A stretch of 64,000 bases of DNA from Escherichia coli (GCF_030384885.1 NZ_CP128613.1); one strand, 5' to 3'. Numbered from the stretch's first letter, positions 11,914-32,397 are shown. Numbers and translations are program-made. The notes: generated by a model not told the origin, from the sequence alone.

Positions 11914-12276
11914 ACTTGTAACATGGCCGGTACTTTACCCACCGGCTTGCTACCCTCTTGAAATATCCCACTAGTAATCATGCTTACTTAAGTCAAATTA
12001 ACCACACAATTAAACACACTTAGTTAAATAGCCATAAAACCCCTAATAAAAATGTATGAATATGAAAACCCTACGGTATTCGCTGTTTCCGAAAAATAAT
12101 TACGATGGGCTATACTCTTCTGAAGAACAGTAGCGTAGATTGAAACTGTCCTAAGTCGCTTATTTGTTTTCAGTATATCTTCATATTTCAGGAGAATATG
12201 TGCAGTTAGTCGATCTCGCACGTTGCGTTTCGTTTTTGATTCCGTCTGCTTTCCCAGCCTTATAAGGGTGTGAATT

Positions 12277-13659: not shown

Positions 13660-13683
13660 ATGCGCCAGGATGCAGAGGTAATC

Positions 13684-16083
13684 ATGAAGCTAACCGATGC
13701 GGATAATGCCGCCGATGGCATTTTTTTCCCCGCCCTTGAGCAAAATATGATGGGCGCGGTGTTAATTAACGAAAATGATGAAGTGATGTTTTTCAACCCC
13801 GCCGCAGAGAAGCTCTGGGGATACAAACGTGAAGAAGTCATTGGCAATAACATTGATATGCTGATTCCGCGGGATTTGCGTCCTGCGCATCCTGAATATA
13901 TCCGTCACAACCGTGAAGGCGGTAAAGCGCGCGTCGAGGGGATGAGTCGGGAGCTGCAGCTGGAGAAAAAAGACGGCAGTAAAATCTGGACCCGTTTTGC
14001 GCTATCGAAAGTGAGCGCCGAGGGTAAAATTTATTACCTGGCGCTGGTACGGGATGCCAGCGTAGAAATGGCGCAAAAAGAACAGATCCGACAATTGATT
14101 ATTGCTGTTGACCATCTCGACCGACCGGTGATTGTCCTCGATCCGGAACGCCATATTGTGCAGTGCAATCGCGCATTTACCGAAATGTTTGGTTACTGCA
14201 TTAGCGAAGCCAGCGGTATGCAGCCCGATACACTCCTGAACATTCCTGAATTCCCTGCCGATAACCGCATTCGTTTACAACAGTTGCTATGGAAAACCGC
14301 CCGCGATCAGGATGAATTTCTGCTGTTGACGCGCACCGGTGAAAAAATCTGGATTAAAGCCTCTATCAGCCCGGTCTATGACGTACTCGCACATCTTCAA
14401 AACCTGGTAATGACTTTCTCGGATATCACCGAAGAACGGCAAATCCGCCAGCTTGAAGGCAATATTCTCGCCGCCATGTGCAGCAGCCCGCCATTTCATG
14501 AAATGGGGGAAATCATTTGTCGTAACATCGAATCTGTTCTCAACGAATCGCATGTTTCGCTGTTCGCGCTGCGCAACGGGATGCCGATACACTGGGCGTC
14601 ATCTTCGCACGGTACAGAAGTTCAAAATGCGCAAAGCTGGTCAGCGACCATTCGTCAGCGTGATGGCGCACCGGCGGGGATCCTGCAAATTAAAACCTCG
14701 TCAGGAGCAGAAACCAGCGCCTTTATCGAACGCGTGGCAGATATCAGCCAGCATATGGCCGCGCTGGCGCTGGAACAGGAAAAAAGCCGTCAGCATATTG
14801 AACAACTCATCCAATTTGATCCGATGACCGGTCTGCCAAATCGCAATAACCTGCACAATTACCTCGATGACCTGGTCGACAAAGCCGTCTCTCCGGTGGT
14901 CTATCTCATCGGTGTTGACCATATTCAGGATGTGATTGATAGCCTTGGCTATGCGTGGGCCGATCAGGCATTGCTGGAAGTGGTCAATCGCTTTCGTGAA
15001 AAACTCAAACCGGATCAGTATCTCTGTCGTATCGAAGGTACGCAGTTTGTCCTCGTGAGCCTGGAAAACGACGTCAGTAACATTACCCAAATCGCCGATG
15101 AGCTACGGAATGTGGTCAGCAAGCCGATAATGATTGACGATAAACCATTCCCGCTCACCTTGAGCATTGGCATCAGCTACGACGTGGGTAAAAACCGCGA
15201 TTACCTGCTCTCCACTGCCCATAACGCGATGGATTATATTCGCAAGAATGGCGGTAACGGCTGGCAGTTCTTCAGCCCGGTGATGAACGAAATGGTGAAA
15301 GAACGATTGATATTAGGCGCAGCGCTGAAAGAAGCGATTAGCAATAACCAACTGAAACTGGTTTACCAGCCACAAATCTTCGCAGAAACGGGTGAACTGT
15401 ACGGCATCGAAGCCCTTGCTCGCTGGCACGATCCTCTGCATGGTCATGTGCCCCCTTCACGGTTTATTCCTCTCGCAGAAGAGATTGGCGAAATCGAAAA
15501 TATTGGGCGCTGGGTCATCGCGGAAGCTTGCCGTCAGTTAGCAGAATGGCGTAGCCAGAATATTCATATTCCAGCGTTATCCGTTAACTTGTCTGCGCTG
15601 CACTTCCGCAGTAATCAGCTGCCTAATCAGGTGTCTGATGCAATGCAAGTCTGGGGCATTGACGGCCACCAGCTAACGGTGGAAATCACCGAAAGCATGA
15701 TGATGGAACACGATACGGAAATTTTTAAGCGCATCCAGATCCTGCGCGATATGGGCGTGGGTTTATCGGTAGATGATTTTGGCACGGGTTTTTCCGGGTT
15801 ATCCCGCTTAGTCAGTCTTCCGGTAACGGAAATCAAAATTGACAAAAGTTTTGTTGATCGTTGTCTGACTGAAAAACGCATCCTTGCCTTACTTGAAGCT
15901 ATTACCAGCATTGGGCAAAGCCTGAATTTAACCGTCGTAGCGGAAGGCGTCGAAACCAAAGAGCAATTTGAGATGCTACGCAAGATTCACTGTCGCGTTA
16001 TTCAGGGATATTTCTTTTCCCGCCCCCTGCCCGCCGAAGAAATTCCAGGCTGGATGAGTAGCGTGTTACCGCTGAAAATCTGA
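13684..16083 (+). CDS. dosP: c-di-GMP phosphodiesterase, heme PAS sensor (799 aa)
   Basis: Protein begins MKLTDADNAADGIFFPALEQ; PAS domains followed by an EAL domain (EAL motif in GIEALARW); ORF-track start 13660 is over-extended by 8 codons. Confidence 0.9.
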   Translation: MKLTDADNAADGIFFPALEQNMMGAVLINENDEVMFFNPAAEKLWGYKREEVIGNNIDMLIPRDLRPAHPEYIRHNREGGKARVEGMSRELQLEKKDGSKIWTRFALSKVSAEGKIYYLALVRDASVEMAQKEQIRQLIIAVDHLDRPVIVLDPERHIVQCNRAFTEMFGYCISEASGMQPDTLLNIPEFPADNRIRLQQLLWKTARDQDEFLLLTRTGEKIWIKASISPVYDVLAHLQNLVMTFSDITEERQIRQLEGNILAAMCSSPPFHEMGEIICRNIESVLNESHVSLFALRNGMPIHWASSSHGTEVQNAQSWSATIRQRDGAPAGILQIKTSSGAETSAFIERVADISQHMAALALEQEKSRQHIEQLIQFDPMTGLPNRNNLHNYLDDLVDKAVSPVVYLIGVDHIQDVIDSLGYAWADQALLEVVNRFREKLKPDQYLCRIEGTQFVLVSLENDVSNITQIADELRNVVSKPIMIDDKPFPLTLSIGISYDVGKNRDYLLSTAHNAMDYIRKNGGNGWQFFSPVMNEMVKERLILGAALKEAISNNQLKLVYQPQIFAETGELYGIEALARWHDPLHGHVPPSRFIPLAEEIGEIENIGRWVIAEACRQLAEWRSQNIHIPALSVNLSALHFRSNQLPNQVSDAMQVWGIDGHQLTVEITESMMMEHDTEIFKRIQILRDMGVGLSVDDFGTGFSGLSRLVSLPVTEIKIDKSFVDRCLTEKRILALLEAITSIGQSLNLTVVAEGVETKEQFEMLRKIHCRVIQGYFFSRPLPAEEIPGWMSSVLPLKI

Positions 16084-16094
16084 CAAATCCCTCT

Positions 16095-16120
16095 CGCCCG
16101 CACTCGCGGGTTTTCTTTTA
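16095..16120 (+). terminator. Rho-independent terminator after dosP
   Basis: Stem CCCGC-ACTC-GCGGG followed by TTTTCTTTT. Confidence 0.65.
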
Positions 16121-16340
16121 ACGTGACACTGTCACTTAAATACTGTGATTTCAGCTACGATTCCGGGAGATTCCTTCCTTAACTTCCCCTCTTGCACCAA
16201 AACTGCACTACGCTGCACAAATGTTGATCAAAAGTTAAAAAATATAACTTTAAGCCAGCATTCTGGCGCTTATCCCGGCATGGCATGAGATCTGCATAAG
16301 CGGAAAGCGCAGCAATTTTTGTCTTATACAGGAACCGTTT

Positions 16341-16922
16341 ATGTCGGATACCACCGAACTGGTTGATTTAGCCGTGATCTTCCCTGATCTGGAGATCGAA
16401 TTGAAATACGCCTGCGCTGATAACATCACAGGTAAAGCTATTTATCAGCAAGCGCGTTGTCTGTTACACAAGGATGCGATTACCGCGCTGGCGAAAAGTA
16501 TCAGTATCGCCCAGCTGTCAGGCTTACAACTGGTGATTTACGATGCGTATCGCCCACAACAAGCACAGGCGATGTTGTGGCAAACCTGCCCAGACCCGCA
16601 ATATGTTGTTGATGTGACGGTCGGTTCTAATCACAGCCGTGGCACGGCGATCGACCTGACGCTTCGTGATGAGCACGGGAACATCCTCGATATGGGCGCA
16701 GAGTTCGATGAAATGCACGAACGTTCCCATGCTTACCATCCTTCCGTCCCGCCCGCCGCTCAGCGCAATCGCCTGTTGCTGAATGCGATTATGACTGGCG
16801 GTGGCTTTGTCGGTATCCCGAGCGAATGGTGGCACTTCGAATTACCCCAGGCAGCGAGTTACCCACTACTCGCTGATCAATTCACCTGTTTTATATCCCC
16901 TGGCACACAGCACGCCAGTTAA
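16341..16922 (+). CDS. ddpX: D-alanyl-D-alanine dipeptidase (193 aa)
   Basis: VanX-like zinc dipeptidase; matches remembered DdpX; first gene of the ddp operon. Confidence 0.9.
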   Translation: MSDTTELVDLAVIFPDLEIELKYACADNITGKAIYQQARCLLHKDAITALAKSISIAQLSGLQLVIYDAYRPQQAQAMLWQTCPDPQYVVDVTVGSNHSRGTAIDLTLRDEHGNILDMGAEFDEMHERSHAYHPSVPPAAQRNRLLLNAIMTGGGFVGIPSEWWHFELPQAASYPLLADQFTCFISPGTQHAS

Positions 16923-16935
16923 TCAGGAAACTGTC

Positions 16936-18486
16936 ATGAATAGATCGATTTCGTTTCGTCCTACATTGCTCGCGATCGTCCTTGCCACAACAATGCCGGT
17001 TGCGCACGCCGCCGTACCGAAAGATATGCTGGTGATCGGTAAAGCTGCCGACCCACAAACCCTCGACCCGGCGGTAACAATTGATAATAACGACTGGACA
17101 GTGACCTACCCGTCTTATCAGCGACTGGTTCAGTACAAAACGGACGGTGATAAAGGCTCAACAGACGTTGAAGGCGATCTGGCGAGTAGCTGGAAAGCGT
17201 CTGACGATCAAAAAGAGTGGACGTTCACCCTGAAGGACAATGCTAAATTTGCCGATGGCACACCCGTCACTGCCGAAGCAGTAAAACTCTCTTTTGAGCG
17301 GTTACTAAAAATCGGTCAGGGGCCAGCAGAAGCATTTCCCAAAGATTTAAAGATTGATGCTCCCGACGAACATACGGTGAGGTTTACCCTTAGCCAGCCA
17401 TTCGCACCGTTCCTCTACACGCTGGCGAATGACGGTGCATCCATTATCAATCCGGCGGTCTTAAAAGAACATGCGGCCGATGATGCCCGTGGTTTCCTCG
17501 CGCAAAATACCGCTGGCTCCGGACCGTTTATGCTGAAAAGCTGGCAAAAAGGTCAGCAATTAGTTCTGGTGCCAAATCCGCATTACCCCGGCAATAAACC
17601 GAACTTCAAACGGGTATCGGTAAAAATTATCGGTGAAAGTGCCTCCCGTCGCCTGCAGCTCTCCCGTGGCGACATTGACATTGCCGATGCGCTGCCGGTG
17701 GATCAACTCAACGCCCTGAAGCAGGAAAACAAAGTCAACGTGGCAGAGTATCCGTCACTGCGCGTCACCTATCTGTATCTCAATAACAGCAAAGCGCCAC
17801 TTAATCAGGCGGATCTGCGTCGGGCCATTTCCTGGTCTACCGATTATCAGGGTATGGTTAACGGCATTCTGAGCGGTAACGGAAAACAAATGCGCGGCCC
17901 GATTCCGGAAGGCATGTGGGGATACGATGCGACGGCAATGCAATACAACCATGACGAAACGAAAGCCAAAGCCGAATGGGATAAAGTGACGAGCAAACCC
18001 ACTAGCCTGACGTTTCTCTACTCCGATAACGATCCGAACTGGGAACCTATTGCTCTGGCAACACAATCCAGCCTCAACAAGCTGGGCATCAATGTGAAGC
18101 TGGAAAAGCTGGCGAACGCCACCATGCGCGACAGAGTGGGTAAAGGTGATTACGACATCGCGATTGGCAACTGGAGTCCGGATTTTGCCGACCCGTATAT
18201 GTTTATGAATTACTGGTTTGAGTCCGACAAAAAAGGTCTGCCGGGTAACCGCTCGTTCTATGAAAACAGTGAGGTCGATAAGTTACTGCGCAATGCGCTA
18301 GCGACCACCGACCAGACGCAGCGTACCCGGGACTACCAGCAGGCACAGAAAATCGTCATTGATGACGCTGCTTATGTGTATCTGTTCCAGAAAAACTACC
18401 AACTGGCGATGAACAAAGAGGTGAAAGGCTTTGTGTTCAATCCCATGCTGGAACAGGTCTTCAATATCAATACCATGAGTAAATAA
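16936..18486 (+). CDS. ddpA: D-Ala-D-Ala ABC transporter periplasmic binding protein (516 aa)
   Basis: Begins MNRSISFRPTLLAIVLATTMPVAHA (signal peptide); ORF-track start 16801 is over-extended into ddpX. Confidence 0.9.
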   Translation: MNRSISFRPTLLAIVLATTMPVAHAAVPKDMLVIGKAADPQTLDPAVTIDNNDWTVTYPSYQRLVQYKTDGDKGSTDVEGDLASSWKASDDQKEWTFTLKDNAKFADGTPVTAEAVKLSFERLLKIGQGPAEAFPKDLKIDAPDEHTVRFTLSQPFAPFLYTLANDGASIINPAVLKEHAADDARGFLAQNTAGSGPFMLKSWQKGQQLVLVPNPHYPGNKPNFKRVSVKIIGESASRRLQLSRGDIDIADALPVDQLNALKQENKVNVAEYPSLRVTYLYLNNSKAPLNQADLRRAISWSTDYQGMVNGILSGNGKQMRGPIPEGMWGYDATAMQYNHDETKAKAEWDKVTSKPTSLTFLYSDNDPNWEPIALATQSSLNKLGINVKLEKLANATMRDRVGKGDYDIAIGNWSPDFADPYMFMNYWFESDKKGLPGNRSFYENSEVDKLLRNALATTDQTQRTRDYQQAQKIVIDDAAYVYLFQKNYQLAMNKEVKGFVFNPMLEQVFNINTMSK

Positions 18487-18487
18487 C

Positions 18488-19510
18488 GTGACCTTCTGGA
18501 GTATTTTACGCCAACGCTGCTGGGGGCTGGTGCTCGTGGTGGCGGGCGTCTGTGTGATTACGTTTATTATCTCGCACCTGATCCCCGGCGACCCGGCGCG
18601 GTTACTGGCGGGTGACCGCGCCAGCGATGCTATCGTGGATAATATTCGCCAGCAACTGGGACTGGACCAGCCACTGTACGTACAGTTTTACCGCTACGTC
18701 AGCGACCTGTTTCAGGGTGACCTGGGAACATCCATTCGTACCGGGCGTCCGGTGCTGGAAGAGTTGCGCATATTTTTCCCGGCGACGCTGGAACTGGCAT
18801 TTTGCGCCCTGCTGCTGGCACTCCTGGTTGGTATCCCGCTGGGCATACTCTCTGCAGTCTGGCGAAATCGCTGGCTGGATCATCTGGTGCGAATAATGGC
18901 CATTACCGGAATCTCCACACCTGCGTTCTGGCTTGGGCTGGGCGTCATTGTGCTGTTTTATGGTCATCTGCAAATTCTTCCCGGCGGCGGAAGGCTTGAT
19001 GACTGGCTGGATCCACCAACGCACGTTACCGGCTTTTATCTGCTCGATGCGCTGCTTGAAGGCAACGGTGAAGTCTTCTTCAATGCGCTGCAACATCTCA
19101 TCTTACCGGCATTAACGCTGGCGTTCGTTCACCTGGGGATTGTCGCTCGCCAGATCCGCTCAGCTATGCTGGAACAATTGAGTGAAGACTACATTCGTAC
19201 CGCCCGGGCCAGCGGCTTGCCCGGCTGGTATATCGTTTTATGTTATGCGCTACCCAATGCGTTGATCCCCTCGATTACCGTATTGGGGCTGGCGCTGGGC
19301 GATTTGTTGTATGGCGCAGTGCTCACCGAAACCGTTTTTGCCTGGCCCGGAATGGGTGCATGGGTAGTAACATCAATACAGGCGCTCGACTTCCCGGCAG
19401 TGATGGGCTTTGCCGTCGTGGTTTCATTTGCTTATGTGCTGGTCAACCTGGTGGTGGATTTGCTCTATTTGTGGATTGATCCGCGTATCGGACGTGGAGG
19501 TGATGAATGA
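18488..19510 (+). CDS. ddpB: ABC transporter permease (340 aa), GTG start
   Basis: GTG at 18488, two nt after the ddpA stop; membrane protein of the DppB type. Confidence 0.85.
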   Translation: MTFWSILRQRCWGLVLVVAGVCVITFIISHLIPGDPARLLAGDRASDAIVDNIRQQLGLDQPLYVQFYRYVSDLFQGDLGTSIRTGRPVLEELRIFFPATLELAFCALLLALLVGIPLGILSAVWRNRWLDHLVRIMAITGISTPAFWLGLGVIVLFYGHLQILPGGGRLDDWLDPPTHVTGFYLLDALLEGNGEVFFNALQHLILPALTLAFVHLGIVARQIRSAMLEQLSEDYIRTARASGLPGWYIVLCYALPNALIPSITVLGLALGDLLYGAVLTETVFAWPGMGAWVVTSIQALDFPAVMGFAVVVSFAYVLVNLVVDLLYLWIDPRIGRGGDE

Positions 19511-20403
19511 TGCTAAGCGAGGAAACGTCCGTCGTACGCCCACCAAAACAAACGCGATTTAACGGTGCAAAACTGGTATGGATGCTGAAAGGCAGTCCGC
19601 TCACCGTGACCGGCGCAGTCATCATTGTATTAATGCTATTGATGATGATTTTTTCACCGTGGCTGGCGACGCATGATCCCAACGCCATTGATTTAACTGC
19701 CCGCCTTTTGCCGCCTTCTGCGGCGCACTGGTTTGGCACCGATGAAGTGGGACGCGATCTGTTTAGCCGCGTACTGGTCGGCAGTCAGCAATCAATTCTC
19801 GCCGGATTAGTGGTGGTCGCCATTGCGGGTATGATGGGTTCGCTACTCGGGTGTCTATCCGGTGTGCTTGGCGGACGCGCAGACGCGATCATCATGCGCA
19901 TCATGGACATTATGCTGTCGATTCCTTCGCTGGTGCTGACAATGGCGCTGGCTGCCGCACTTGGACCGAGTTTGTTTAACGCCATGCTGGCGATTGCTAT
20001 CGTGCGAATCCCGTTTTATGTGCGCCTGGCGCGGGGGCAAACATTAGTTGTCCGCCAGTACACTTTCGTTCAGGCGGCGAAAACCTTCGGTGCGTCACGC
20101 TGGCATCTGATCAACTGGCATATTTTACGTAACTCCCTGCCGCCGCTGATTGTGCAGGCATCGCTGGATATTGGTAGCGCGATTTTAATGGCCGCCACGT
20201 TGGGATTTATTGGCCTGGGTGCTCAACAACCGAGTGCTGAATGGGGGGCGATGGTGGCGAATGGTCGCAACTATGTGCTCGATCAATGGTGGTATTGCGC
20301 ATTTCCGGGGGCAGCGATTTTGCTTACCGCCGTCGGGTTCAATCTCTTTGGTGATGGTATTCGCGATCTGCTTGACCCGAAAGCAGGAGGAAAGCAGTCA
20401 TGA
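19507..20403 (+). CDS. ddpC: ABC transporter permease (298 aa)
   Basis: ATGA overlap with the ddpB stop; DppC-type permease. Confidence 0.88.
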   Translation: MMLSEETSVVRPPKQTRFNGAKLVWMLKGSPLTVTGAVIIVLMLLMMIFSPWLATHDPNAIDLTARLLPPSAAHWFGTDEVGRDLFSRVLVGSQQSILAGLVVVAIAGMMGSLLGCLSGVLGGRADAIIMRIMDIMLSIPSLVLTMALAAALGPSLFNAMLAIAIVRIPFYVRLARGQTLVVRQYTFVQAAKTFGASRWHLINWHILRNSLPPLIVQASLDIGSAILMAATLGFIGLGAQQPSAEWGAMVANGRNYVLDQWWYCAFPGAAILLTAVGFNLFGDGIRDLLDPKAGGKQS

Positions 20404-21386
20404 CCCAACCCGTTCTGGACATTCAACAACTGCATTTGAGTTTCTCCGGTTTTAACGGCGACGTTCACGCGCTCAACAATGTGTCATTGAAAATCAACCG
20501 CGGTGAAATTGTCGGTCTGGTGGGAGAATCCGGCTCGGGTAAATCAGTCACTGCAATGTTGATTATGCGTCTGTTACCGACGGGCAGTTATTGCGTACAT
20601 CGGGGACATATTTCACTGCTGGGAGAAGATGCTCTTAACGCTCGGGAAAAACAGCTTCGTCAGTGGCGCGGCGCACGAGTGGCGATGATCTTTCAGGAAC
20701 CGATGACCGCCCTAAATCCGACACGTCGAATAGGTCTTCAGATGATGGACGTGATCCGCCATCATCAACCAATAAGTCGTCGGGAAGCCAGAGCTAAAGC
20801 GATTGCCCTGCTGGAAGAGATGCAAATCCCGGATGCCGTGGAAGTTATGTCGCGCTATCCGTTTGAGCTTTCAGGTGGTATGCGCCAGCGGGTAATGATT
20901 GCGCTGGCATTCTCCTGCGAGCCGCAATTGATTATTGCCGACGAACCGACTACGGCGCTGGACGTCACGGTACAGTTGCAGGTACTGCGTCTGCTTAAAC
21001 ATAAAGCCCGCGCCAGTGGAACTGCGGTACTGTTCATCAGCCATGATATGGCCGTGGTGTCGCAACTGTGCGATAGCGTTTACGTGATGTATGCCGGAAG
21101 CGTGATCGAGAGCGGTATGACGGCAGACGTTATCCATCATCCCCGGCATCCGTATACCATTGGTTTGCTGCAATGCGCACCGGAACATGGAATACCACGC
21201 CAGCCATTACCCGCCATTCCAGGGACGGTACCAAACCTCACCCATTTGCCTGACGGCTGCGCTTTTCGCGATCGTTGCTATGCGGCAGGTACACAGTGTG
21301 AAAACGTCCCGGCGCTGACAGCGTGTGGTGACAACAACCACCGCTGCGCCTGTTGGTATCCTCAGCAGGAGGTCATTAGTGTCTGA
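20400..21386 (+). CDS. ddpD: ABC transporter ATP-binding protein (328 aa)
   Basis: Walker A GESGSGKS, signature LSGGMRQR, Walker B; ATGA overlap with ddpC. Confidence 0.9.
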   Translation: MTQPVLDIQQLHLSFSGFNGDVHALNNVSLKINRGEIVGLVGESGSGKSVTAMLIMRLLPTGSYCVHRGHISLLGEDALNAREKQLRQWRGARVAMIFQEPMTALNPTRRIGLQMMDVIRHHQPISRREARAKAIALLEEMQIPDAVEVMSRYPFELSGGMRQRVMIALAFSCEPQLIIADEPTTALDVTVQLQVLRLLKHKARASGTAVLFISHDMAVVSQLCDSVYVMYAGSVIESGMTADVIHHPRHPYTIGLLQCAPEHGIPRQPLPAIPGTVPNLTHLPDGCAFRDRCYAAGTQCENVPALTACGDNNHRCACWYPQQEVISV

Positions 21387-22305
21387 CACGTTATTAACGT
21401 TACGCGACGTCCATATCAATTTCCCGGCCCGAAAAAACTGGCTTGGTAAAACTACGGAACATGTTCATGCCATCAATGGTATTGATTTACAGATCCGTCG
21501 TGGTGAAACCTTAGGGATCGTCGGTGAGTCAGGCTGCGGCAAAAGCACCCTCGCGCAGCTTTTAATGGGTATGCTGCAACCGAGCCACGGGCAGTACATC
21601 CGTTCAGGATCACAACGCATTATGCAGATGGTGTTTCAGGACCCGCTCTCTTCGCTTAATCCGCGCTTACCGGTGTGGCGCATCATCACGGAACCGCTCT
21701 GGATTGCTAAGCGTAGTAGTGAACAACAGCGGCGAGCGTTGGCAGAGGAGCTGGCTGTGCAGGTGGGTATTCGTCCGGAGTATCTCGACCGCTTGCCTCA
21801 TGCGTTCTCAGGCGGGCAGCGGCAACGTATCGCCATTGCCAGAGCACTCTCTTCGCAGCCTGACGTGATTGTGCTTGATGAGCCCACCTCGGCGCTGGAT
21901 ATCTCCGTGCAGGCGCAGATCCTCAATTTACTGGTAACGCTACAGGAAAATCGCGGGCTGACTTATGTGCTGATTTCACACAATGTCTCGGTGATACGTC
22001 ATATGAGCGATCGGGTGGCGGTGATGTATCTCGGACAGATTGTTGAACTAGGAGACGCGCAACAGGTGCTGACAGCTCCGGCACATCCATACACCAGATT
22101 ATTGCTGGATTCCCTCCCCGCCATTGATAAACCGCTGGAGGAAGAATGGGCATTGCGTAAAACGGAACTACCAGGAAACCGCACGTTGCCGCCGGGCTGT
22201 TTTTTCCGTGAACGTTGCCCTCTGGCAACCCACGGATGTGAAGTCCGGCAATCATTAACAATAAGGGAGGACGGACGTGAGATCCGGTGCTGGCGGGCGC
22301 TGTAG
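21379..22305 (+). CDS. ddpF: ABC transporter ATP-binding protein (308 aa), GTG start
   Basis: Walker A GESGCGKST, signature FSGGQRQR; begins VSDTLLTLRD at GTG 21379, overlapping the ddpD end; ORF-track start 21325 is over-extended. Confidence 0.85.
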   Translation: MSDTLLTLRDVHINFPARKNWLGKTTEHVHAINGIDLQIRRGETLGIVGESGCGKSTLAQLLMGMLQPSHGQYIRSGSQRIMQMVFQDPLSSLNPRLPVWRIITEPLWIAKRSSEQQRRALAEELAVQVGIRPEYLDRLPHAFSGGQRQRIAIARALSSQPDVIVLDEPTSALDISVQAQILNLLVTLQENRGLTYVLISHNVSVIRHMSDRVAVMYLGQIVELGDAQQVLTAPAHPYTRLLLDSLPAIDKPLEEEWALRKTELPGNRTLPPGCFFRERCPLATHGCEVRQSLTIREDGREIRCWRAL

Positions 22306-22342
22306 AGACGCGGCATCCGGCTATTGCATGTCTGTGGAAACG

Positions 22343-23233
22343 TTATGCGTCATAGGTTTTTTTTAACGTTTCCATCAACGCTTGCGCCGCAGTAGAAAGC
22401 TTATGGTGTGACGAACGCAGAACGCCTACCCGTCGCTCAATCACCGGATTATCCAGTTCCAGACACACTGCGCCCAATTCGCTCATCTGCCTGCGGCACA
22501 GTGCAGGCACAGCGCTGCCCCCCAAACCGTTTGCCACCAGCCGCCCAACCGTAACCAGTTGATGGCTTTCCAGCGCCACTTCCAGTTGCGTTCCACTTTG
22601 TGCCAATTCCTCTTCCAGCATCAACCTGACGGCTGACGGTCGCTGGAGGGTGATAAAATCGAGCGTCAGCAAATCCCGCCAGCTCACGCGTTGCCGATTT
22701 GCCAGTCGGGAATCGGCTGGAACAATAGCAACAAACCGATCCACGCCCAGCGGGATAAAATGCAAATGGCCGCAATAGTCAGGTTCAAAGGCAATCCCCA
22801 TCTCCACGCGCCCTTCACTCACCATTTCGATTACCAGCTCATTCACCACATCGTGCACAGTGACGTTAATCCCTGAATAACAATCGCGGAAGGTTTTCAG
22901 CACCGGAGGCAAAACGTTGGCCGCAAATGACGGCATCGCTGCCACTGAGACTTTGCCCCGCCTGAGCGTGAATCGCTGACGCATGGCCTCTTCGGTGTTA
23001 TCCCAGTCAGCCAGCAAAGGCCGTGCCATCGACAATAGCGTTTCCCCCTCCTGGGTTAACGTCACTTTTCGCGTAGTACGCAGCAGTAAAGCGCCCCCTA
23101 AGGCATCTTCCAGTCCTTTAATGGCAAGACTTAGCGCAGGCTGCGACATATTCAGCCGTTCACTGGCATGGGCAAAGTTCAGAGTGTGAGCTACCGCTAA
23201 AAACGCGCGTAACTGTTTGATGCTCATTTTCAT
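22343..23233 (-). CDS. LysR-family transcriptional regulator (296 aa)
   Basis: N-terminal helix-turn-helix of LysR type (MKMSIKQLRAFLAVAHTLNFAHASERL...) plus a substrate-binding domain; transcribed divergently from the CoA-transferase operon. Confidence 0.85.
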   Translation of the reverse strand: MKMSIKQLRAFLAVAHTLNFAHASERLNMSQPALSLAIKGLEDALGGALLLRTTRKVTLTQEGETLLSMARPLLADWDNTEEAMRQRFTLRRGKVSVAAMPSFAANVLPPVLKTFRDCYSGINVTVHDVVNELVIEMVSEGRVEMGIAFEPDYCGHLHFIPLGVDRFVAIVPADSRLANRQRVSWRDLLTLDFITLQRPSAVRLMLEEELAQSGTQLEVALESHQLVTVGRLVANGLGGSAVPALCRRQMSELGAVCLELDNPVIERRVGVLRSSHHKLSTAAQALMETLKKTYDA

Positions 23234-23374
23234 CTGGTATTCCGTTAACTTGTTGAATACATTTAATTAACATTATATTTATAAATAATACAAATGAATG
23301 AGTCACAAATTTAAAATTAACAAATCATTTTTTGCCCTTAATGATGTTGGAAAGGACAACTGGAGGGCAACTGT

Positions 23375-24082
23375 ATGGCTGGGCTGGATAAACGGGTCGC
23401 TACGTATCACGAGGCGCTTGAAGGACTTACCAATGAGATGACGATTCTGGCGGGAGGTTTTGGCCTGTGCGGCATCCCGGAGAATCTGATTGCTGAAGTT
23501 CGCCACCGTGGAGTAACCGCATTGACGGTGGTTTCCAATAACTGTGGCGTAGACGGTTTTGGACTGGGTGTACTGCTGGAAACCCGACAGATCCGTAAAG
23601 TCATCGCTTCTTATGTTGGCGAAAATGCTTTGTTTGAAAAACAGGTGCTTAACGGCGAACTGGAGGCGATTCTCACACCACAAGGAACCCTGGCAGAACA
23701 ACTGCGCGCAGGCGGCGCGGGCATCCCGGCGTTCTTTACTGCCACCGGTTACGGTACACCCGTTGCCGAAGGGAAAGAAGTCCGCGAATTCAACGGTCGC
23801 CCGTACATAATGGAACAGGCTATCACCGGTGATTTTGCCCTGGTCAAAGGCTGGAAAGCCGACTGGTACGGCAACGTGATTTATCGTCATACCGCGCAAA
23901 ACTTCAACCCACTGATGGCGGCTGCCGGAAAAATCACCGTGGTGGAAGTGGAAGAGATTGTGCCGCCTGGTGAACTTGATCCTGCCGCAATCCATACCCC
24001 AGGGATTTTTGTTAATCGCGTCATTCAGGGGCAATTTGAAAAACGCATTGAACAACGCACCCTTAGCCGCAAAGGAGCCTGA
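23375..24082 (+). CDS. 3-oxoacid/acetoacetate CoA-transferase subunit A (235 aa)
   Basis: Family resemblance to AtoD/ScoA ([27 protein letters not shown]); GGAGGG ribosome-binding site. Confidence 0.85.
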
Positions 24083-24084
24083 CC

Positions 24085-24741
24085 ATGTTAACCCGTGAAC
24101 AAATGGCGATGCGAGTCGCCCGCGAATTGCGCGATGGCTATTACGTCAATCTCGGCATTGGTATCCCGACCCTGGTGGCAAACTACATTCCTGACGGGAT
24201 GGATGTGATGTTGCAGTCAGAAAACGGTTTGCTGGGAATGGGCGCATTTCCTACGGAAGATGAACTGGACGCCGACATGATTAACGCCGGTAAACAAACC
24301 GTTACCGCACGGAAAGGCGCGGCAATTTTCGATTCGGCGCAATCTTTCGCCATGATCCGTGGCGGCCATGTGGATCTGACTGTGCTTGGCGCATTTGAAG
24401 TGGATGTGAATGGCAACATTGCCTCATGGATGATCCCCGGCAAGATGGTTAAAGGCATGGGCGGTGCCATGGATCTGGTTGCCGGTGCCGAGAATATTAT
24501 TGTGGTAATGACCCACGCCTCCAAATCCGGCGAATCCAAACTGCTTCCCGACTGTACCCTGCCATTGACTGGCGTCGGCTGCATCAAACGCGTCTTAACC
24601 GACCTTGCTCTGCTGGAAATTGCTGACGGCGCTTTCATTCTGCGCGAGCGCGCGCCGGGAATCAGCGTTGCGGAAATCGTCGCCAAAACCGCCGGTAAGT
24701 TGTTTGTGCCGGAACATGTCCCGGAAATGCAATTCAACTGA
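24085..24741 (+). CDS. 3-oxoacid/acetoacetate CoA-transferase subunit B (218 aa)
   Basis: AtoA/ScoB-like; starts 3 nt after the subunit A stop. Confidence 0.85.
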   Translation: MLTREQMAMRVARELRDGYYVNLGIGIPTLVANYIPDGMDVMLQSENGLLGMGAFPTEDELDADMINAGKQTVTARKGAAIFDSAQSFAMIRGGHVDLTVLGAFEVDVNGNIASWMIPGKMVKGMGGAMDLVAGAENIIVVMTHASKSGESKLLPDCTLPLTGVGCIKRVLTDLALLEIADGAFILRERAPGISVAEIVAKTAGKLFVPEHVPEMQFN

Positions 24742-24750
24742 GGAATCACC

Positions 24751-25956
24751 ATGCAGGACGTTGTTATTGTTGCCGCTACGCGCACGCCGATTGGCTGTTT
24801 TCATGGCGCTCTCGCACCACTTTCTGCGGTTGATCTCGGCGCTGCCACCATCCGTTCATTGCTGGAGAAAACCGCACTTGCAGCAGAACAGATCGATGAA
24901 GTGATTTTTGGTCAGGTCCTGACTGCCGGAAGCGGACAAAACCCAGCACGGCAATCGGCGCTCAAAGCCGGGTTAAGCCACGATACACCCGCCGTTACCA
25001 TCAACCTGGTATGTGGTTCCGGTTTGAAAGCCGTACACCAGGCCGTGCAGGCGATCCGCTGTGGTGATGCACAGATCATTATCGCAGGTGGCCAGGAAAG
25101 CATGAGCAACGCGCCCTATTTTATTGATGGCGCGCGGGCAGGTTTACGCCTCGGGCATACCAGCATGAAAGACAGCGTGGTTCATGACGGACTATGGGAT
25201 GCTTTCAATGATTACCACATGGGCATTACTGCAGAAAACCTGGCGCAAAAATATGCCATCAGTCGCGAGCGCCAGGACACATTCGCGCTACGTTCTCAGC
25301 AAAAAGCCGCTGCCGCAATGGAAGCCTGGCGCTTTGCAGACGAAATTACTCCGGTCAGCGTACCACAAGGTAAAAAACCACCACGCTGGGTAAATACCGA
25401 CGAACAACCACGTTCCGGGACGCAACTGGAAAAACTGGCGCAACTGAAACCGGCCTTTCTTCCGGGGGCAGGAAGCGTCACCGCGGGAAATGCCTCTTCC
25501 ATCAATGATGGTGCCGCCGCAGTCATGTTAATGCGCGCCAGCAAAGCTGCCGAACTTGGCCTCTCTGTGCTGGCTCGGGTGGCCGGTTATGCCGTTTCTG
25601 GCGTCGATCCTGCCTTTATGGGCATCGGTCCGGTCGTCGCTACCCGCGAATGTCTTAAGCGTTGCGGATGGACGCTGGAAGATATTGATCTTATTGAAGC
25701 AAACGAAGCTTTCGCAGCGCAGGCGCTGGCCGTTGGCGACGAACTGAACTGGGATAACGACAAAGTGAATGTTAACGGCGGCGCAATCGCACTTGGGCAT
25801 CCTATTGGCGCTTCTGGTTGCCGCATTCTGGTCACTCTCATTTATGAAATGGCGCGACGTAATGCGCAAAAAGGGCTGGCGACGCTGTGCGTCGGTGGCG
25901 GTCAGGGCGTGGCGCTGACGCTGGAAAGAACCACAGGAGAACACCATGCAAACTGA
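24751..25956 (+). CDS. Acetyl-CoA acetyltransferase (thiolase II, 401 aa)
   Basis: Thiolase signatures, including [17 protein letters not shown] and a C-terminal GGGQG. Confidence 0.88.
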
Positions 25957-26869
25957 ACAATTTGCGGTACTGGGCGCCGGATTGATGGGCGTGGGGATTG
26001 CCACTCATTTCGCCCGCTTTGGTCATGATATCTGGCTGTACGATACCGAGCAGAGCCGGATTGCTGAAATCCCCGTAGTTGCAGCCGGGATTCTTGATGA
26101 ACTGATTAGCTGCGAACAGTTTACTGCCTCGGGAAAAGAGAATGTGCTTAAACGCCTTCACGGCACGACCTCTCTTGCTGACATCGCCGACTCGCAACTA
26201 CTGATTGAGGCGATCCCGGAGCGGCTTGAACTAAAACACGCATTATATGCCGAGCTTGAAACACTTATTTCTCCTGAGGCCATTGTCGCCAGCAATACCA
26301 GCGGTCTGCCGCCCGATGATCTGGCAGCGAAGATGCGCTACCCGCAACGACTGCTGATCGCCCATTTCTGGCATCCGCCGCACTTCATTCCACTTGTAGA
26401 GATTGTCCCCGGCAGCGTTACCGAGCCAAAGCATTTGCACTGGCTGCAACACTTGCTTGTGTCACTGCAACTGGAAGCTGTGTTGCTGGATCGCGCTGCG
26501 CCAGGATTTGTCGGCAACCGTCTGCAATTTGCACTGTTGCGTGAAGCCCTGCATATCGTAAAAAGCGGCATCGCCAGTGCCGAAGTAGTCGATCAGGTCA
26601 TGCGCGCCTCGCTTGGGCGACGTTATGCCATGGTCGGCCCGCTGGAGGCCGCCGACATGACCGGACTTTCGACGGTGCAGGATATTTGTCGCCATCTTCT
26701 CCCTGAACTGGCGACTGGCAGCGACATGATGTCGTTAGTTGCCGAAAAAGTGGAACGTGGAGACATCGGCGTACGTAGCGGTCAGGGATTTTACCGCTGG
26801 GATGAATCGCGGAAGCAGTACATCCAGCAGCGTCGGGAACATCAGCTTCGCTTCGCCCTGAAACCCTAA
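25946..26869 (+). CDS. 3-hydroxyacyl-CoA (3-hydroxybutyryl-CoA) dehydrogenase (307 aa)
   Basis: N-terminal NAD-binding Rossmann motif [12 protein letters not shown]; overlaps the thiolase gene by 11 nt; AGGAGA ribosome-binding site. Confidence 0.8.
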
Positions 26870-26914
26870 CTTCTCTCGCTGTACCCACTATAACAACGAT
26901 ATTGAGGAGTCCCG

Positions 26915-28306
26915 ATGAGTGTATTAATCGCCCTTGCCGCGCTTGGGCTGCTAATGCTGGCAGCCTATCGCGGATACAGCGTTATCCTTTTTGCCCCCAT
27001 CGCGGCATTAGGCGCTGTTCTTGTCACCGATCCGGGGGCTGTTGGCCCAGCATTTACCGGTCTGTTCATGGAAAAAATGGTCGGCTTCGTGAAATTGTAC
27101 TTCCCGGTGTTTCTGCTCGGGGCCGTGTTCGGAAAACTGATTGAGCTTTCAGGATTTTCTCGTTCGATTGTCGCTGCTGCAATCAACATTCTCGGGCGGC
27201 GGCATGCGATTCCGGTGATTGTGCTGGTATGCGCATTACTCACCTATGGCGGCGTGTCGCTGTTTGTGGTGGCATTTGCCGTTTATCCGTTCGCGGCTGA
27301 ATTGTTCCGACAGAGTAATATCCCCAAACGGCTTATACCGGCAACGGTGGCCCTCGGAGCATTCTCTTTTACTATGGACGCTCTGCCCGGCACACCTCAA
27401 ATCCAGAACATTATTCCCACCAGTTTCTTTGGCACCAACGCCTGGGCCGCGCCGTGGCTGGGGCTCATTGGTTCACTGTTTATCATTGCCGTCGGGCTTA
27501 TCTATCTGGAGCGACAGCGTCGTAAAGCGCATGCAAAAAATGAAGGTTACGGCACAGAGTTACTTAATGAACCTGAAACGCCAGACAACATCAATTTGCC
27601 GAATCCACTCATTGCGATTTCACCGTTGATTCTGGTGGGGCTGTTGAACTTGTTGTTTACCTGGTGGATCCCTGTTTGGTACGGTGCGAGTCACCAACTG
27701 GAGTTGCCAGGACTTGCCGCCCCGATCACTACAGATGTCGCCAAAATCACCGCTATCTGGGCCGTTGAAGCAGCGCTCATTGCCGGAATTTTGCTGGTGG
27801 TGATTTTCGGATATCGCAATATTCATGGAAGACTGGCAGAAGGAAGCCGTACTGCGGTGGGTGGCGCAATTCTGGCCGCGATGAACACCGCCTCAGAATA
27901 TGGCTTCGGTGCGGTTATCGCCGCTCTGCCCGGTTTTCTGGTGCTCTCAAAGGCGCTGGCTGCCATTCCAGATCCATTACTCAACGAAGCCATCAGCATC
28001 ACCACGCTTGCCGGCATTACCGGTTCAGCGTCCGGCGGGATGAGTATTGCTCTTGCGGCTATGTCCGACACTTTTATTGCCGCTGCGCACGCTGCCAATA
28101 TTCCACTGGAAGTTTTTCACCGCGTGGCATCTATGGCCAGTGGCGGCATGGATACATTGCCCCATAACGGCGCAGTGATCACTCTGCTGGCAATTACTGG
28201 GCTGAGTCACCGTCAGGCTTACGGCGGTATCTTCGCAATTACGATCATTAAAAGTCTGGCCGTGCTGTTTATCATCGGCGTGTACTACACCACCGGCATT
28301 GTCTAA
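26915..28306 (+). CDS. Polytopic permease, GntP-like (463 aa)
   Basis: About 12 predicted transmembrane segments; overall resemblance to the GntP/hydroxy-acid:H+ symporter family; substrate unknown. Confidence 0.6.
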   Translation: MSVLIALAALGLLMLAAYRGYSVILFAPIAALGAVLVTDPGAVGPAFTGLFMEKMVGFVKLYFPVFLLGAVFGKLIELSGFSRSIVAAAINILGRRHAIPVIVLVCALLTYGGVSLFVVAFAVYPFAAELFRQSNIPKRLIPATVALGAFSFTMDALPGTPQIQNIIPTSFFGTNAWAAPWLGLIGSLFIIAVGLIYLERQRRKAHAKNEGYGTELLNEPETPDNINLPNPLIAISPLILVGLLNLLFTWWIPVWYGASHQLELPGLAAPITTDVAKITAIWAVEAALIAGILLVVIFGYRNIHGRLAEGSRTAVGGAILAAMNTASEYGFGAVIAALPGFLVLSKALAAIPDPLLNEAISITTLAGITGSASGGMSIALAAMSDTFIAAAHAANIPLEVFHRVASMASGGMDTLPHNGAVITLLAITGLSHRQAYGGIFAITIIKSLAVLFIIGVYYTTGIV

Positions 28307-28317
28307 GGAGAATCATC

Positions 28318-28695
28318 ATGAATTTACAAGGTAAAACTGCGCTTGTGACGGGGTCCTCCAGCGGTATTGGACTCGGTATTGCTCAGACACTGGCAAAAGC
28401 CGGCGCGCAAGTGATCCTCAACGGCTTCGGTGATGTTGACGCGGCAATCAATGGAGTTTCTCGTGTGGGTAAAACGCCTGGCTATCATGAGGCAGACCTC
28501 AGCGATGAATCGCAAATTGTCAGCATGATGGCCTACGCACGGAGGGAATTTGGCGGTGTGGACATTCTGGTGAATAACGCCGGGATCCAATTGGAGCTGA
28601 CCAAATGGGTGGAAGCTTCTGATAACGACATCCTCAGTGATATCTACCAGCAAACGATCAATTATGTGGTCAGTGGCCAGCACCCTACGCTTTAA
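28318..28695 (+). pseudogene. Chimeric ORF: N-terminal 92 codons of a short-chain dehydrogenase fused in frame to the last 33 codons of bdm
   Basis: N-terminus has the SDR cofactor motif TGSSSGIGLG and NNAG; from about 28594 the protein reads ELTKWVEASDNDILSDIYQQTINYVVSGQHPTL, identical to the remembered Bdm C-terminus; total length 125 aa against about 250 aa for an SDR. Confidence 0.7.
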
Positions 28696-28796
28696 GGTGC
28701 TATGCTTGATCGGCAACCTAATTTAGGGGTTTAGCACGTGTTTCTTCGCTACGGCGATGTTGTCCTTAAAACTAGCAACAGGATTGAGGAGTTAAA

Positions 28797-28934
28797 ATGA
28801 AATCGAACCGTCAGGCACGTCATATTCTTGGACTGGACCATAAAATTTCTAACCAGCGCAAAATAGTTACCGAAGGTGACAAATCCAGCGTGGTAAATAA
28901 CCCAACCGGCAGAAAACGCCCCGCTGAAAAGTAA
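28797..28934 (+). CDS. sra: Stationary-phase ribosome-associated protein Sra (45 aa)
   Basis: [45 protein letters not shown]; below the 60-aa cutoff of the ORF track. Confidence 0.85.
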
Positions 28935-29090
28935 TCTTTAACAATCAGTCCTCAATGACGATTAAACACCATTGCCTGCGCAATGGTGTTTTTGTTTTTA
29001 ACTGCTTTATACTTGGAGCCGACGCCCTGGCGGTAAAGCAAAGACGATAAAAGCACCCCAGGGATGGATATTCAAAAAAGAGTGAGTGAC

Positions 29091-30788
29091 ATGGAACCAA
29101 AAACAAAAAAACAGCGTTCGCTTTATATTCCTTACGCTGGCCCTGTACTGCTGGAATTTCCGTTGTTGAATAAAGGCAGCGCCTTCAGCATGGAAGAACG
29201 CCGTAACTTCAACCTGCTGGGGTTACTGCCGGAAGTGGTCGAAACCATCGAAGAACAAGCGGAACGCGCATGGATCCAGTATCAGGGATTCAAAACCGAA
29301 ATCGACAAACACATCTACCTGCGTAACATCCAGGACACCAACGAAACCCTCTTCTACCGTCTGGTAAACAATCATCTTGATGAGATGATGCCTGTTATTT
29401 ATACCCCAACCGTCGGCGCAGCCTGTGAGCGTTTTTCTGAGATCTACCGCCGTTCACGCGGCGTGTTTATCTCTTACCAGAACCGCCACAATATGGACGA
29501 TATTCTGCAAAACGTGCCGAACCATAATATTAAAGTGATTGTGGTGACTGACGGCGAACGTATTCTGGGGCTTGGTGACCAGGGCATCGGTGGGATGGGT
29601 ATTCCGATCGGTAAACTGTCGCTCTATACCGCCTGCGGCGGCATCAGCCCGGCGTATACACTGCCGGTGGTGCTGGATGTCGGGACGAACAACCAGCAGT
29701 TGCTTAACGACCCGCTGTATATGGGCTGGCGTAATCCACGTATCACTGACGACGAATACTATGAATTCGTGGATGAATTTATCCAGGCTGTGAAGCAACG
29801 CTGGCCGGACGTGTTATTGCAGTTTGAAGATTTTGCACAGAAAAACGCGATGCCGTTGCTTAACCGCTATCGCAATGAAATTTGTTCTTTTAACGATGAT
29901 ATTCAGGGCACCGCGGCGGTAACAGTCGGCACACTGATCGCAGCCAGCCGTGCGGCGGGCGGTCAGTTAAGCGAGAAAAAAATCGTCTTCCTCGGCGCAG
30001 GTTCAGCAGGATGCGGCATTGCGGAGATGATCATCGCCCAGACTCAGCGTGAAGGATTAAGCGAAGAAGCGGCGCGGCAGAAAGTCTTTATGGTCGATCG
30101 CTTTGGTCTGCTGACCGACAAGATGCCGAACCTGCTGCCTTTCCAGACCAAACTGGTGCAGAAGCGCGAAAATCTCAGTGACTGGGATACTGACAGCGAT
30201 GTGCTGTCATTGCTTGATGTGGTGCGCAATGTCAAACCGGATATTCTGATTGGCGTCTCAGGACAGACCGGGCTGTTTACGGAAGAGATCATCCGTGAGA
30301 TGCACAAACACTGTCCGCGTCCGATCGTGATGCCGCTGTCTAACCCGACTTCACGTGTGGAAGCCACACCGCAGGACATTATCGCCTGGACCGAAGGTAA
30401 CGCGCTGGTCGCCACTGGCAGCCCGTTTAATCCAGTGGTATGGAAAGATAAAATCTACCCTATCGCCCAGTGTAATAACGCCTTTATTTTCCCGGGCATC
30501 GGGCTGGGTGTTATTGCTTCCGGCGCGTCACGTATCACCGATGAGATGCTGATGTCGGCAAGCGAAACGCTTGCTCAGTATTCGCCGCTGGTACTGAACG
30601 GCGAAGGTCTGGTACTGCCGGAACTGAAAGATATTCAGAAAGTGTCCCGCGCAATTGCGTTTGCGGTTGGCAAAATGGCGCAGCAGCAAGGCGTGGCGGT
30701 GAAAACGTCTGCCGAAGCTCTGCAACAGGCCATTGATGATAACTTCTGGCAAGCCGAATACCGCGACTACCGCCGTACATCCATCTAA
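29091..30788 (+). CDS. maeA: NAD-dependent malic enzyme (565 aa)
   Basis: Begins [19 protein letters not shown]; an alternative in-frame ATG lies 9 codons upstream at 29064 (ORF-track start). Confidence 0.9.
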
Positions 30789-32118: not shown

Positions 32119-32397
32119 ATGATAATGAATTTCAGACACAAGGGATTGCGTGACTTGTTTCTTCTCGGCAAAACCTCCGGCGTTATACCGACGCAAATCA
32201 AACGATTACGCCACCGACTCGCTGTGATTGATGCAGCAAGCTGTCTTGCTGATATCGATATGCCCGGCTACCGACTACACCCGTTAAGCGGCGATCGTGA
32301 TGGAATTTGGGCGATATCTGTCTCGGGCAACTGGCGAATCACATTTGAATTCGTCAATGGCGATGCATACATACTGGATTACGAGGACTATCACTGA
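32119..32397 (+). CDS. HigB/RelE-family toxin (about 90 aa)
   Basis: Small basic protein; [13 protein letters not shown]-terminus is typical of HigB-like killer proteins; the true start may be ATG 32125; its stop overlaps the antitoxin start (ATGA). Confidence 0.65.

Follow-up and report, generated by a model that had tools for sequence, protein, structure and literature searches.

Why does a 64,000-nt stretch of Escherichia coli NZ_CP128613.1 (GCF_030384885.1), termed here the window, lack osmC, and what is the gene cluster that is found there directly after ddpF? In K-12, osmC, bdm and sra are the sole genes between ddpF and maeA. A reading of the window made without database searches (the sequence-only reading) had named only osmC and bdm between ddpF and sra in K-12, in agreement with the K-12 annotation. 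It proposed that a LysR-regulated cluster for uptake and conversion of 3-hydroxybutyrate or acetoacetate to acetyl-CoA occupies the position of osmC. The seven open reading frames (ORFs) that it named are all found by an ORF listing, at the positions given below. The region is probably a chromosomal accessory ketone-body catabolic operon under a divergent LysR-type regulator, with a separate 1,418-nt deletion in the window. The cluster is accessory, and reference genomes such as E24377A already carry annotations for its genes.

When 22000-29100 (7,101 bases) is used as a megablast query, the best match is the genome 2013C-4282, which is 100% identical and spans 8,519 bases. A base-by-base comparison shows that the window differs from 2013C-4282 at this locus by one clean loss of 1,418 nt, at the junction 28591/28592. 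The 1,418-nt segment is also intact in the public assembly GCA_035824635.1 (L017), which was found via the exact DdpD protein of the window. The lost segment comprises bdhA codons 92-256, osmC, the osmC-bdm intergenic region and bdm codons 1-37; the deletion takes the catalytic two-thirds of bdhA, the whole of osmC and the 5′ half of bdm. Also lost is the palindrome GCCGGATGACGCGTCATCCGGC, the terminator hairpin shared by the convergent bdhA and osmC genes. What is left on the plus strand is a 5′ remnant of bdhA, codons 1-91 (28318-28591), identified by its identity to BdhA of 2013C-4282, and a 3′ remnant of bdm, codons 38-71 and the stop (28592-28695), identified by tblastn and translation. 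As a result of the deletion, the two are joined in frame in a 125-amino-acid BdhA(1-91)-Bdm(38-71) ORF (28318-28695, plus strand).

This ORF had been described as a truncated short-chain dehydrogenase/reductase (SDR). It is indeed short, but it is not a naturally short gene, as it consists of bdhA codons 1-91 fused to bdm codons 38-71. The truncated SDR is BdhA, the defining enzyme of the pathway, which the sequence-only reading overlooked together with the 3′ part of bdm. Residues 1-91 are 100% identical to the 256-amino-acid BdhA of 2013C-4282, and that full-length protein scores 368.8 with NF009093 (cut-off 258) and 341 with TIGR01963 (cut-off 307). The remnant in the window retains the nucleotide-binding motifs TGSSSGIG and NNAG; the catalytic Ser139, Tyr152 and Lys156 are missing from it, and the reading frame becomes bdm after residue 91.

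That the window has no OsmC-like ORF is confirmed by a tblastn search with OsmC over the 64 kb (best E-value 5). The absence of osmC is due to the separate 1,418-nt deletion and not to the island. The gene order in 2013C-4282 is ddpF, LysR regulator, CoA-transferase A and B, acetyl-CoA C-acetyltransferase, a 3-hydroxyacyl-CoA-dehydrogenase (HADH)-family protein, GntP family permease, the 256-amino-acid 3-hydroxybutyrate dehydrogenase, osmC, bdm, sra and maeA, and the order in E24377A is the same. In both genomes, in the near-clonal assembly GCA_035824635.1 and in the contigs that encode the identical permease protein (26 of 26 with bdhA-osmC-bdm intact), the island is found between ddpF and an intact osmC. 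The cluster thus does not occupy the position of osmC, as had been claimed. An intact osmC next to the island is also present in a divergent Escherichia lineage and in four Citrobacter species.

The LysR-type transcriptional regulator (22343-23233, minus strand, 296 amino acids) is divergent from the operon and is separated from it by a control region of 141 nt (23234-23374). It aligns over its full length with many LysR models in an NCBIfam search but passes no equivalog among them. Orthologues with 76-87% identity are found at the same position in Klebsiella pneumoniae and Citrobacter sedlakii, and display the HTH_1 (PF00126) and LysR_substrate (PF03466) domains. On the plus strand follow six ORFs with gaps of 2, 9, -11, 45 and 11 nt, a packing that fits one operon. 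The G+C content of the cluster genes (0.50-0.56) does not differ from that of the flanking ddp and maeA genes.

The first two of these ORFs form a CoA-transferase. Subunit A (23375-24082, plus strand, 235 amino acids) scores 245.2 with TIGR02429 (cut-off 128.5), and its nearest PDB entries are the succinyl-CoA:3-ketoacid CoA-transferase (SCOT) A subunits of Helicobacter pylori and Bacillus subtilis (3cdk), at ∼309 bits, with AtoD at ∼175 bits. Subunit B (24085-24741, plus strand, 218 amino acids) scores 326.6 with TIGR02428 (cut-off 243.55) and carries the SENG motif, which contains the catalytic glutamate, at residues 45-48. By these profile matches the transferase is classed as a family I 3-oxoacid CoA-transferase of the ScoAB/PcaIJ type. 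The third ORF (24751-25956, plus strand, 401 amino acids) encodes an acetyl-CoA C-acetyltransferase (thiolase II). It scores 498.9 with TIGR01930 (cut-off 240.55) and 669.7 with NF004206, which is below the cut-off of 688, and displays the thiolase Cys, His and Cys motifs VCGSG at residue 87, GHPIGASG at 349 and CVGGG at 380.

The likeness to the atoSC/atoDAEB system of E. coli K-12 is that acetoacetate is converted to acetoacetyl-CoA by a two-subunit family I CoA-transferase, followed by thiolysis to acetyl-CoA. The cluster is nevertheless distinct from the ato operon, as the sequence-only reading had maintained. Subunit A is closer to the succinyl-CoA:3-ketoacid transferases and fails the AtoD equivalog NF007394 (199.6 against a cut-off of 315). 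Neither atoE nor atoSC is found beside the cluster, either in the ORF list of the window or in the RefSeq annotation of intact carriers, where only the LysR regulator and the permease are present. The cluster has, in addition, a dedicated permease and two dehydrogenases, and lies at another chromosomal locus.

The permease gene (26915-28306, plus strand) encodes 463 amino acids. The label "GntP family permease" comes from PGAP and source annotations only: there is no Pfam match with E <0.03 and none to GntP_permease (PF02447), no NCBIfam match at E up to 10, and no PDB match by sequence. The protein is 93-94% identical to its counterpart in C. sedlakii, 89% to that in K. pneumoniae (where a 90% cluster has 4,763 members) and 81-82% to that in Pseudomonas; over the Pseudomonas and Stutzerimonas loci the identity is 75-82%. 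Relatives are abundant: a scan limited to one genome per species gave at least 590, and databases contain 8,000 or more such proteins. Gene neighbourhoods were counted in the best 80 of the at least 590 permease loci (L019-L098), again one genome per species. The bdhA gene directly follows the permease gene in all 80 species loci, and a sigma-54 activator lies just upstream in 60 of them, which is the PA2005-PA2004-PA2003 arrangement. In Enterobacterales loci the LysR-scoAB-thiolase module is upstream of the permease, and osmC is convergent downstream in 5/5 Escherichia and Citrobacter loci. These neighbourhoods point to an invariant core of importer and BdhA, usually accompanied by CoA-transferase and thiolase. 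By analogy, the permease is a putative importer of 3-hydroxybutyrate, possibly also of acetoacetate, and a counterpart of the PA2004-type transporter of Pseudomonas aeruginosa.

The protein encoded between thiolase and permease (25946-26869, plus strand, 307 amino acids) is more difficult to place. Records for a 97%-identical protein (PF02737 and PF00725) assign it to the wider 3HCDH family only, and it carries the family Ser, His-Glu and Asn motifs, including GNRLQ. No NCBIfam equivalog is reached. The top scores are those of the 5-formyl-3-hydroxy-2-methylpyridine-4-carboxylate dehydrogenase model (FHMPC-DH, 219.6 against 500) and PRK06129 (202.3 against 347), both above the Hbd models, whose cut-offs are not reached either (PRK05808, 179.2 against 408; PRK07530, 149.6 against 420). 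The PDB scores are 164 bits for 4om8, 141 for Hbd and 121 for lambda-crystallin. A motif HxxxPPHxIP(L/M)(V/I)E is shared with 5-formyl-3-hydroxy-2-methylpyridine-4-carboxylate dehydrogenase, in contrast to clostridial Hbd, which has HFFNPAPVMKLVE.

The clusters of Citrobacter, Klebsiella and two Pseudomonas species include an orthologue (60% identical in Pseudomonas), but those of Enterobacter sp. MGH 24 (L024) and Edwardsiella hoshinae lack the gene. Judged by this distribution, it is an optional extra of the cluster. In Pluralibacter gergoviae ATCC 33028 (L032, 9031-9940) it appears split into ORFs of 200 and 144 amino acids, by a frameshift or a sequencing error. Three remote homologues were looked up for their context, and only one was informative: on a metagenomic contig from SRR15182417 (L100, 592-2930), an HADH-family gene with 49% identity shares 4 nt with the start of a permease gene with 67% identity, which has no bdhA behind it. 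The ranking of scores, with non-CoA members of the family at the top, the shared PPHxIP motif and the coupling of a homologue to a permease homologue give a weak hint that the HADH protein may act on an imported free acid. Its substrate could be (S)-3-hydroxybutyryl-CoA or free (S)-3-hydroxybutyrate. The literature search yielded no usable description of an HADH-family (S)-3-hydroxybutyrate dehydrogenase.

Homology and the gene neighbourhood conserved in E24377A, 2013C-4282, Citrobacter and Klebsiella suggest the following pathway for the intact form. The permease would import 3-hydroxybutyrate, and BdhA would oxidize (R)-3-hydroxybutyrate with NAD+ to acetoacetate. The ScoAB-type transferase would convert acetoacetate to acetoacetyl-CoA, most likely from succinyl-CoA, and the thiolase would cleave this into two acetyl-CoA. 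The HADH-family enzyme most likely feeds in the (S)-enantiomer, as (S)-3-hydroxybutyryl-CoA or as the free acid. The proposal of LysR-regulated uptake and conversion of 3-hydroxybutyrate or acetoacetate to acetyl-CoA is in this way supported by the NCBIfam and PDB comparisons and by the neighbourhoods in Citrobacter, Klebsiella and Pseudomonas. In the window strain, BdhA-dependent use of (R)-3-hydroxybutyrate would be lost, and with it the OsmC peroxiredoxin and Bdm, while the branch from acetoacetate to acetyl-CoA would be kept. Oxidation of D-3-hydroxybutyrate is thus probably absent from this strain, with the acetoacetate branch remaining.

Counterparts in other genera agree with this assignment. 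In C. sedlakii all seven genes are present in unchanged order, with osmC-bdm-sra-maeA-fdn downstream. K. pneumoniae has these seven genes, again in that order, beside budRABC-type acetoin genes; at these loci (L005/L006, 4434-15450) the island adjoins a LysR regulator, acetolactate decarboxylase, acetolactate synthase and an SDR of acetoin/2,3-butanediol metabolism, such that two C4 pathways are adjacent. Loci of the Pseudomonas luteola/oryzihabitans type have the order HADH, sigma-54 activator, permease, bdhA, scoA, scoB and thiolase, and E. hoshinae has LysR, permease, bdhA, two CoA-transferase-sized ORFs and thiolase. The enterobacterial loci lack any enhancer-binding-protein homologue and have a LysR regulator in its stead.

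In P. aeruginosa, bdhA and a sigma-54 enhancer-binding regulator are needed for growth on (R)-3-hydroxybutyrate (PMC13390443, citing Harris et al. 2015), and PA2004 is a putative transporter associated with BdhA and the HbcR regulator (bioRxiv 10.1101/2024.12.18.629020). Pseudomonas loci arranged as PA2005 (HbcR)-PA2004-PA2003 (bdhA) have a permease of the same family (76-82% identical) followed by bdhA (69-75%). They differ from the E. coli cluster in the regulator, which is a sigma-54 enhancer-binding protein rather than a LysR-type protein, and most Pseudomonas loci have no CoA-transferase and thiolase within 10 kb, whereas in E. coli all steps are in one operon. A further difference is the truncation of bdhA in the window.

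A second likeness, in gene arrangement, is to the P. aeruginosa dhcR/dhcAB-atoB(-atoE) genes (PA1998-PA2002), which also comprise a local regulator, two CoA-transferase subunits, a thiolase and a transporter; DhcR regulates dhcAB-atoB, with PA2002 atoE alongside (PMC6235884). Unlike the E. coli cluster, this operon has an AtoE-like transporter, has neither an HADH gene nor bdhA, and is annotated for dehydrocarnitine. By its gene arrangement, the E. coli island looks like the two neighbouring Pseudomonas modules (PA2005-PA2003 and dhc) merged under one LysR regulator. DhcR itself is a LysR-type protein. The B. subtilis yxjC-scoA-scoB-yxjF (bdh) operon, like the E. coli cluster, combines a permease, ScoA, ScoB and a 3-hydroxybutyrate dehydrogenase, and subunit A has B. 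subtilis ScoA (3cdk) among its two closest solved relatives. The B. subtilis operon is not known to contain a thiolase, HADH-family gene or LysR regulator, and its gene order differs from that of the E. coli cluster.

The dehydrocarnitine annotation of dhcAB raises the alternative that the cluster serves carnitine/dehydrocarnitine catabolism, with the HADH protein as a carnitine dehydrogenase. The layout of LysR regulator, CoA-transferase A/B and thiolase does resemble dhcR/dhcAB-atoB (PMC6235884), and carnitine dehydrogenases, which are also HADH-family proteins, gave weak matches. The scores of the carnitine dehydrogenase models are, however, far under their cut-offs (143.5 against 592 and 114.6 against 414), the seven island genes include no other one related to carnitine or betaine, and the permease is paired with bdhA at every one of the 80 loci; a role in carnitine breakdown is very unlikely. 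Even more improbable is that the thiolase and the HADH protein run in the synthetic direction and yield 3-hydroxybutyryl-CoA for a butyrate-type fermentation or for polyhydroxybutyrate. A thiolase and an Hbd-like dehydrogenase would be the first two steps of such a route, and Hbd structures are among the top PDB matches, but the island has no crotonase, acyl-CoA dehydrogenase, polyhydroxyalkanoate synthase or reductase. It has instead an importer, the catabolic BdhA and a 3-oxoacid CoA-transferase, and some clusters that are otherwise complete have a broken HADH gene or none (Enterobacter sp. MGH 24, P. gergoviae and Edwardsiella). A more elaborate form of the ketone-body proposal holds that the HADH protein acts on free (S)-3-hydroxybutyrate, so that the operon handles both enantiomers via acetoacetate, and that the deletion is natural, with OsmC and the (R)-branch lost, the (S)- and acetoacetate branches kept and sra brought under ketone-body control. 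This combination as a whole is unlikely.

Two other explanations concern the absence of osmC. That the island replaced osmC in a single event of insertion plus replacement, which is how the sequence-only reading had it, would account for the missing gene and for the cluster directly after ddpF. However, the E. coli carriers inspected, the divergent Escherichia lineage and the four Citrobacter species keep osmC immediately downstream, and the breakpoint lies inside bdhA and inside bdm rather than at the island border, so that replacement can practically be set aside. The 1,418-nt gap might, on the other hand, be an artefact of assembly, consensus or sequence handling, or a deliberate edit, the true locus then being an intact island followed by osmC-bdm-sra; this is a serious though tentative possibility. 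When 300 nt centred on the junction were used as a probe, none of the 5,426 complete genomes gave a contiguous match. The junction was also not found in the neighbourhoods of identical DdpD and permease proteins, where the contigs with the identical permease are all intact. The fused ORF is absent from an index of 153 billion genes in an exact-protein look-up, although a fused ORF of this kind would probably carry a pseudogene annotation and hence not be indexed. GCA_035824635.1, which has the intact locus, differs from the window by one single-nucleotide polymorphism (SNP) in 18,192 nt upstream of the junction and by none in 1,377 nt downstream, a total of one SNP over 19.6 kb; its copy of the missing segment is identical to that of 2013C-4282. 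The ends of the deletion display no microhomology and no scar sequence, and repeats in register with the breakpoints are lacking: the closest candidates, a pair of 11-mers, are 1,424 nt apart and out of register. Against an artefact, spontaneous deletions lacking microhomology do happen and deletions private to single isolates are common. Moreover, the ends are without repeats that would lead an assembler to collapse the region, and the remainder of the window is normal, closely related E. coli sequence.

Several points weigh against an accessory ketone-body operon that has suffered a separate deletion in this strain. From the sequence alone, the gap may be either a deletion in a living strain or an artefact, the latter having a sizeable, if minority, share of the probability. 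A scan of the control region for T-N11-A dyads gave only AT-rich dyads of low information and no convincing LysR box. The permease has no hidden Markov model family, and its substrate follows from the neighbourhood and the "putative" P. aeruginosa assignment alone. Succinyl-CoA as donor and acetoacetate as acceptor are the most likely substrates of the transferase solely because its nearest solved relatives are SCOT enzymes. The searchable literature yielded no experiment on the E. coli cluster, nor a usable description of the E. coli or Klebsiella cluster.

The SNP that separates the window from GCA_035824635.1 is at 14869, in codon 396 of dosP, where the window and 2013C-4282 have G (Asp) and GCA_035824635.1 has A (Asn). 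It is private to that assembly, since the window agrees with 2013C-4282 at the site. Elsewhere the window is 99.7-99.8% identical to 2013C-4282, with clustered SNPs, and hence is not 2013C-4282 itself. The clusters are at 12000-21600, 30350-30510, 33700-33970, 41000-42000 and 55000-57000 (e.g. 16 SNPs in kb 20-21 and 37 in kb 55-56). Such dense clusters between long identical stretches are the pattern expected of recombination tracts.

The ketone-body island is found in 231 of the 5,426 complete E. coli genomes by megablast with the island alone (229 with 22000-29100 as query), E24377A and O145:H28 being among the carriers, and all 233 island matches in complete genomes are chromosomal. Its divergence runs parallel to that of its surroundings. 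Between the window and E24377A, the island is 96.0-97.7% and the flanks are 96.0-98.0% identical; for the divergent Escherichia lineage (L019) the values are 91-94% and 88-92%, and for C. sedlakii the island is 72-80% and maeA 86% identical. A comparison of K-12, E24377A, 2013C-4282 and the window revealed an imperfect 20-nt direct repeat at the island borders. The left copy, GACGCGGCATCCGGCTATTGC, is at 22307-22327, and the right copy beside osmC, GACGCGTCATCCGGCAATGC, is deleted in the window; K-12 has a single copy. Taken together, the parallel divergence of island and flanks, the border repeat and the synteny with osmC in Citrobacter suggest that the island has long resided in the ddpF-osmC interval and is not a recent acquisition. 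It has probably been lost from most E. coli, as ∼96% of complete genomes are without it.

The control region contains a block of 37 nt (23291-23327, CAAATGAATGAGTCACAAATTTAAAATTAACAAATCA) that is nearly invariant in an alignment of two E. coli alleles, C. sedlakii and K. pneumoniae, and this conservation makes it a candidate site for the regulator. A consensus scan detected a promoter-like -35 sequence TTAACA at 23317-23322 and a -10 sequence AATGAT at 23340-23345, and a GGAGGG ribosome-binding site lies at 23362-23367. No Rfam family match was found within 21000-30000. The next gene 3′ of the operon is sra (28797-28934, plus strand), which is intact, encodes 45 amino acids and was identified from the annotation of relatives. 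From the operon onward, the first terminator-like hairpin on the plus strand is at 28964-28991, after sra. As the bdhA/osmC hairpin is gone and the next one follows sra, this gene is probably co-transcribed with the operon in the window strain, whose transcripts would run on into it.

The island gives ∼4% of complete E. coli genomes, including the enterotoxigenic strain E24377A and Shiga toxin-producing O145:H28, a predicted capacity, lacking in K-12, for growth on the host ketone body 3-hydroxybutyrate, a use that could matter in the gut, in urine or in ketotic hosts. Pathways of this kind are well known, and their biochemistry is textbook. A caution is that the missing osmC and the short SDR stem from one private deletion, the sole unusual feature of the locus, and not from the island. 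Phenotype predictions for the window strain should be adjusted for the lack of BdhA, OsmC and Bdm.

Two further observations concern other parts of the window. At 59980-61226, ∼2.5 kb of an Rhs core-protein gene present in 2013C-4282 is absent, and the alignment breaks up further on, near vgrG; the difference looks like variable Rhs/type VI secretion content. Between adhP and fdnI, at 32119-32681, lies a pair consisting of a HigB-like toxin and the HigA (yddM) antitoxin. Some E. coli contigs with the same DdpD allele (L014, L015) have no call for the toxin gene, and hence the pair is variably present.

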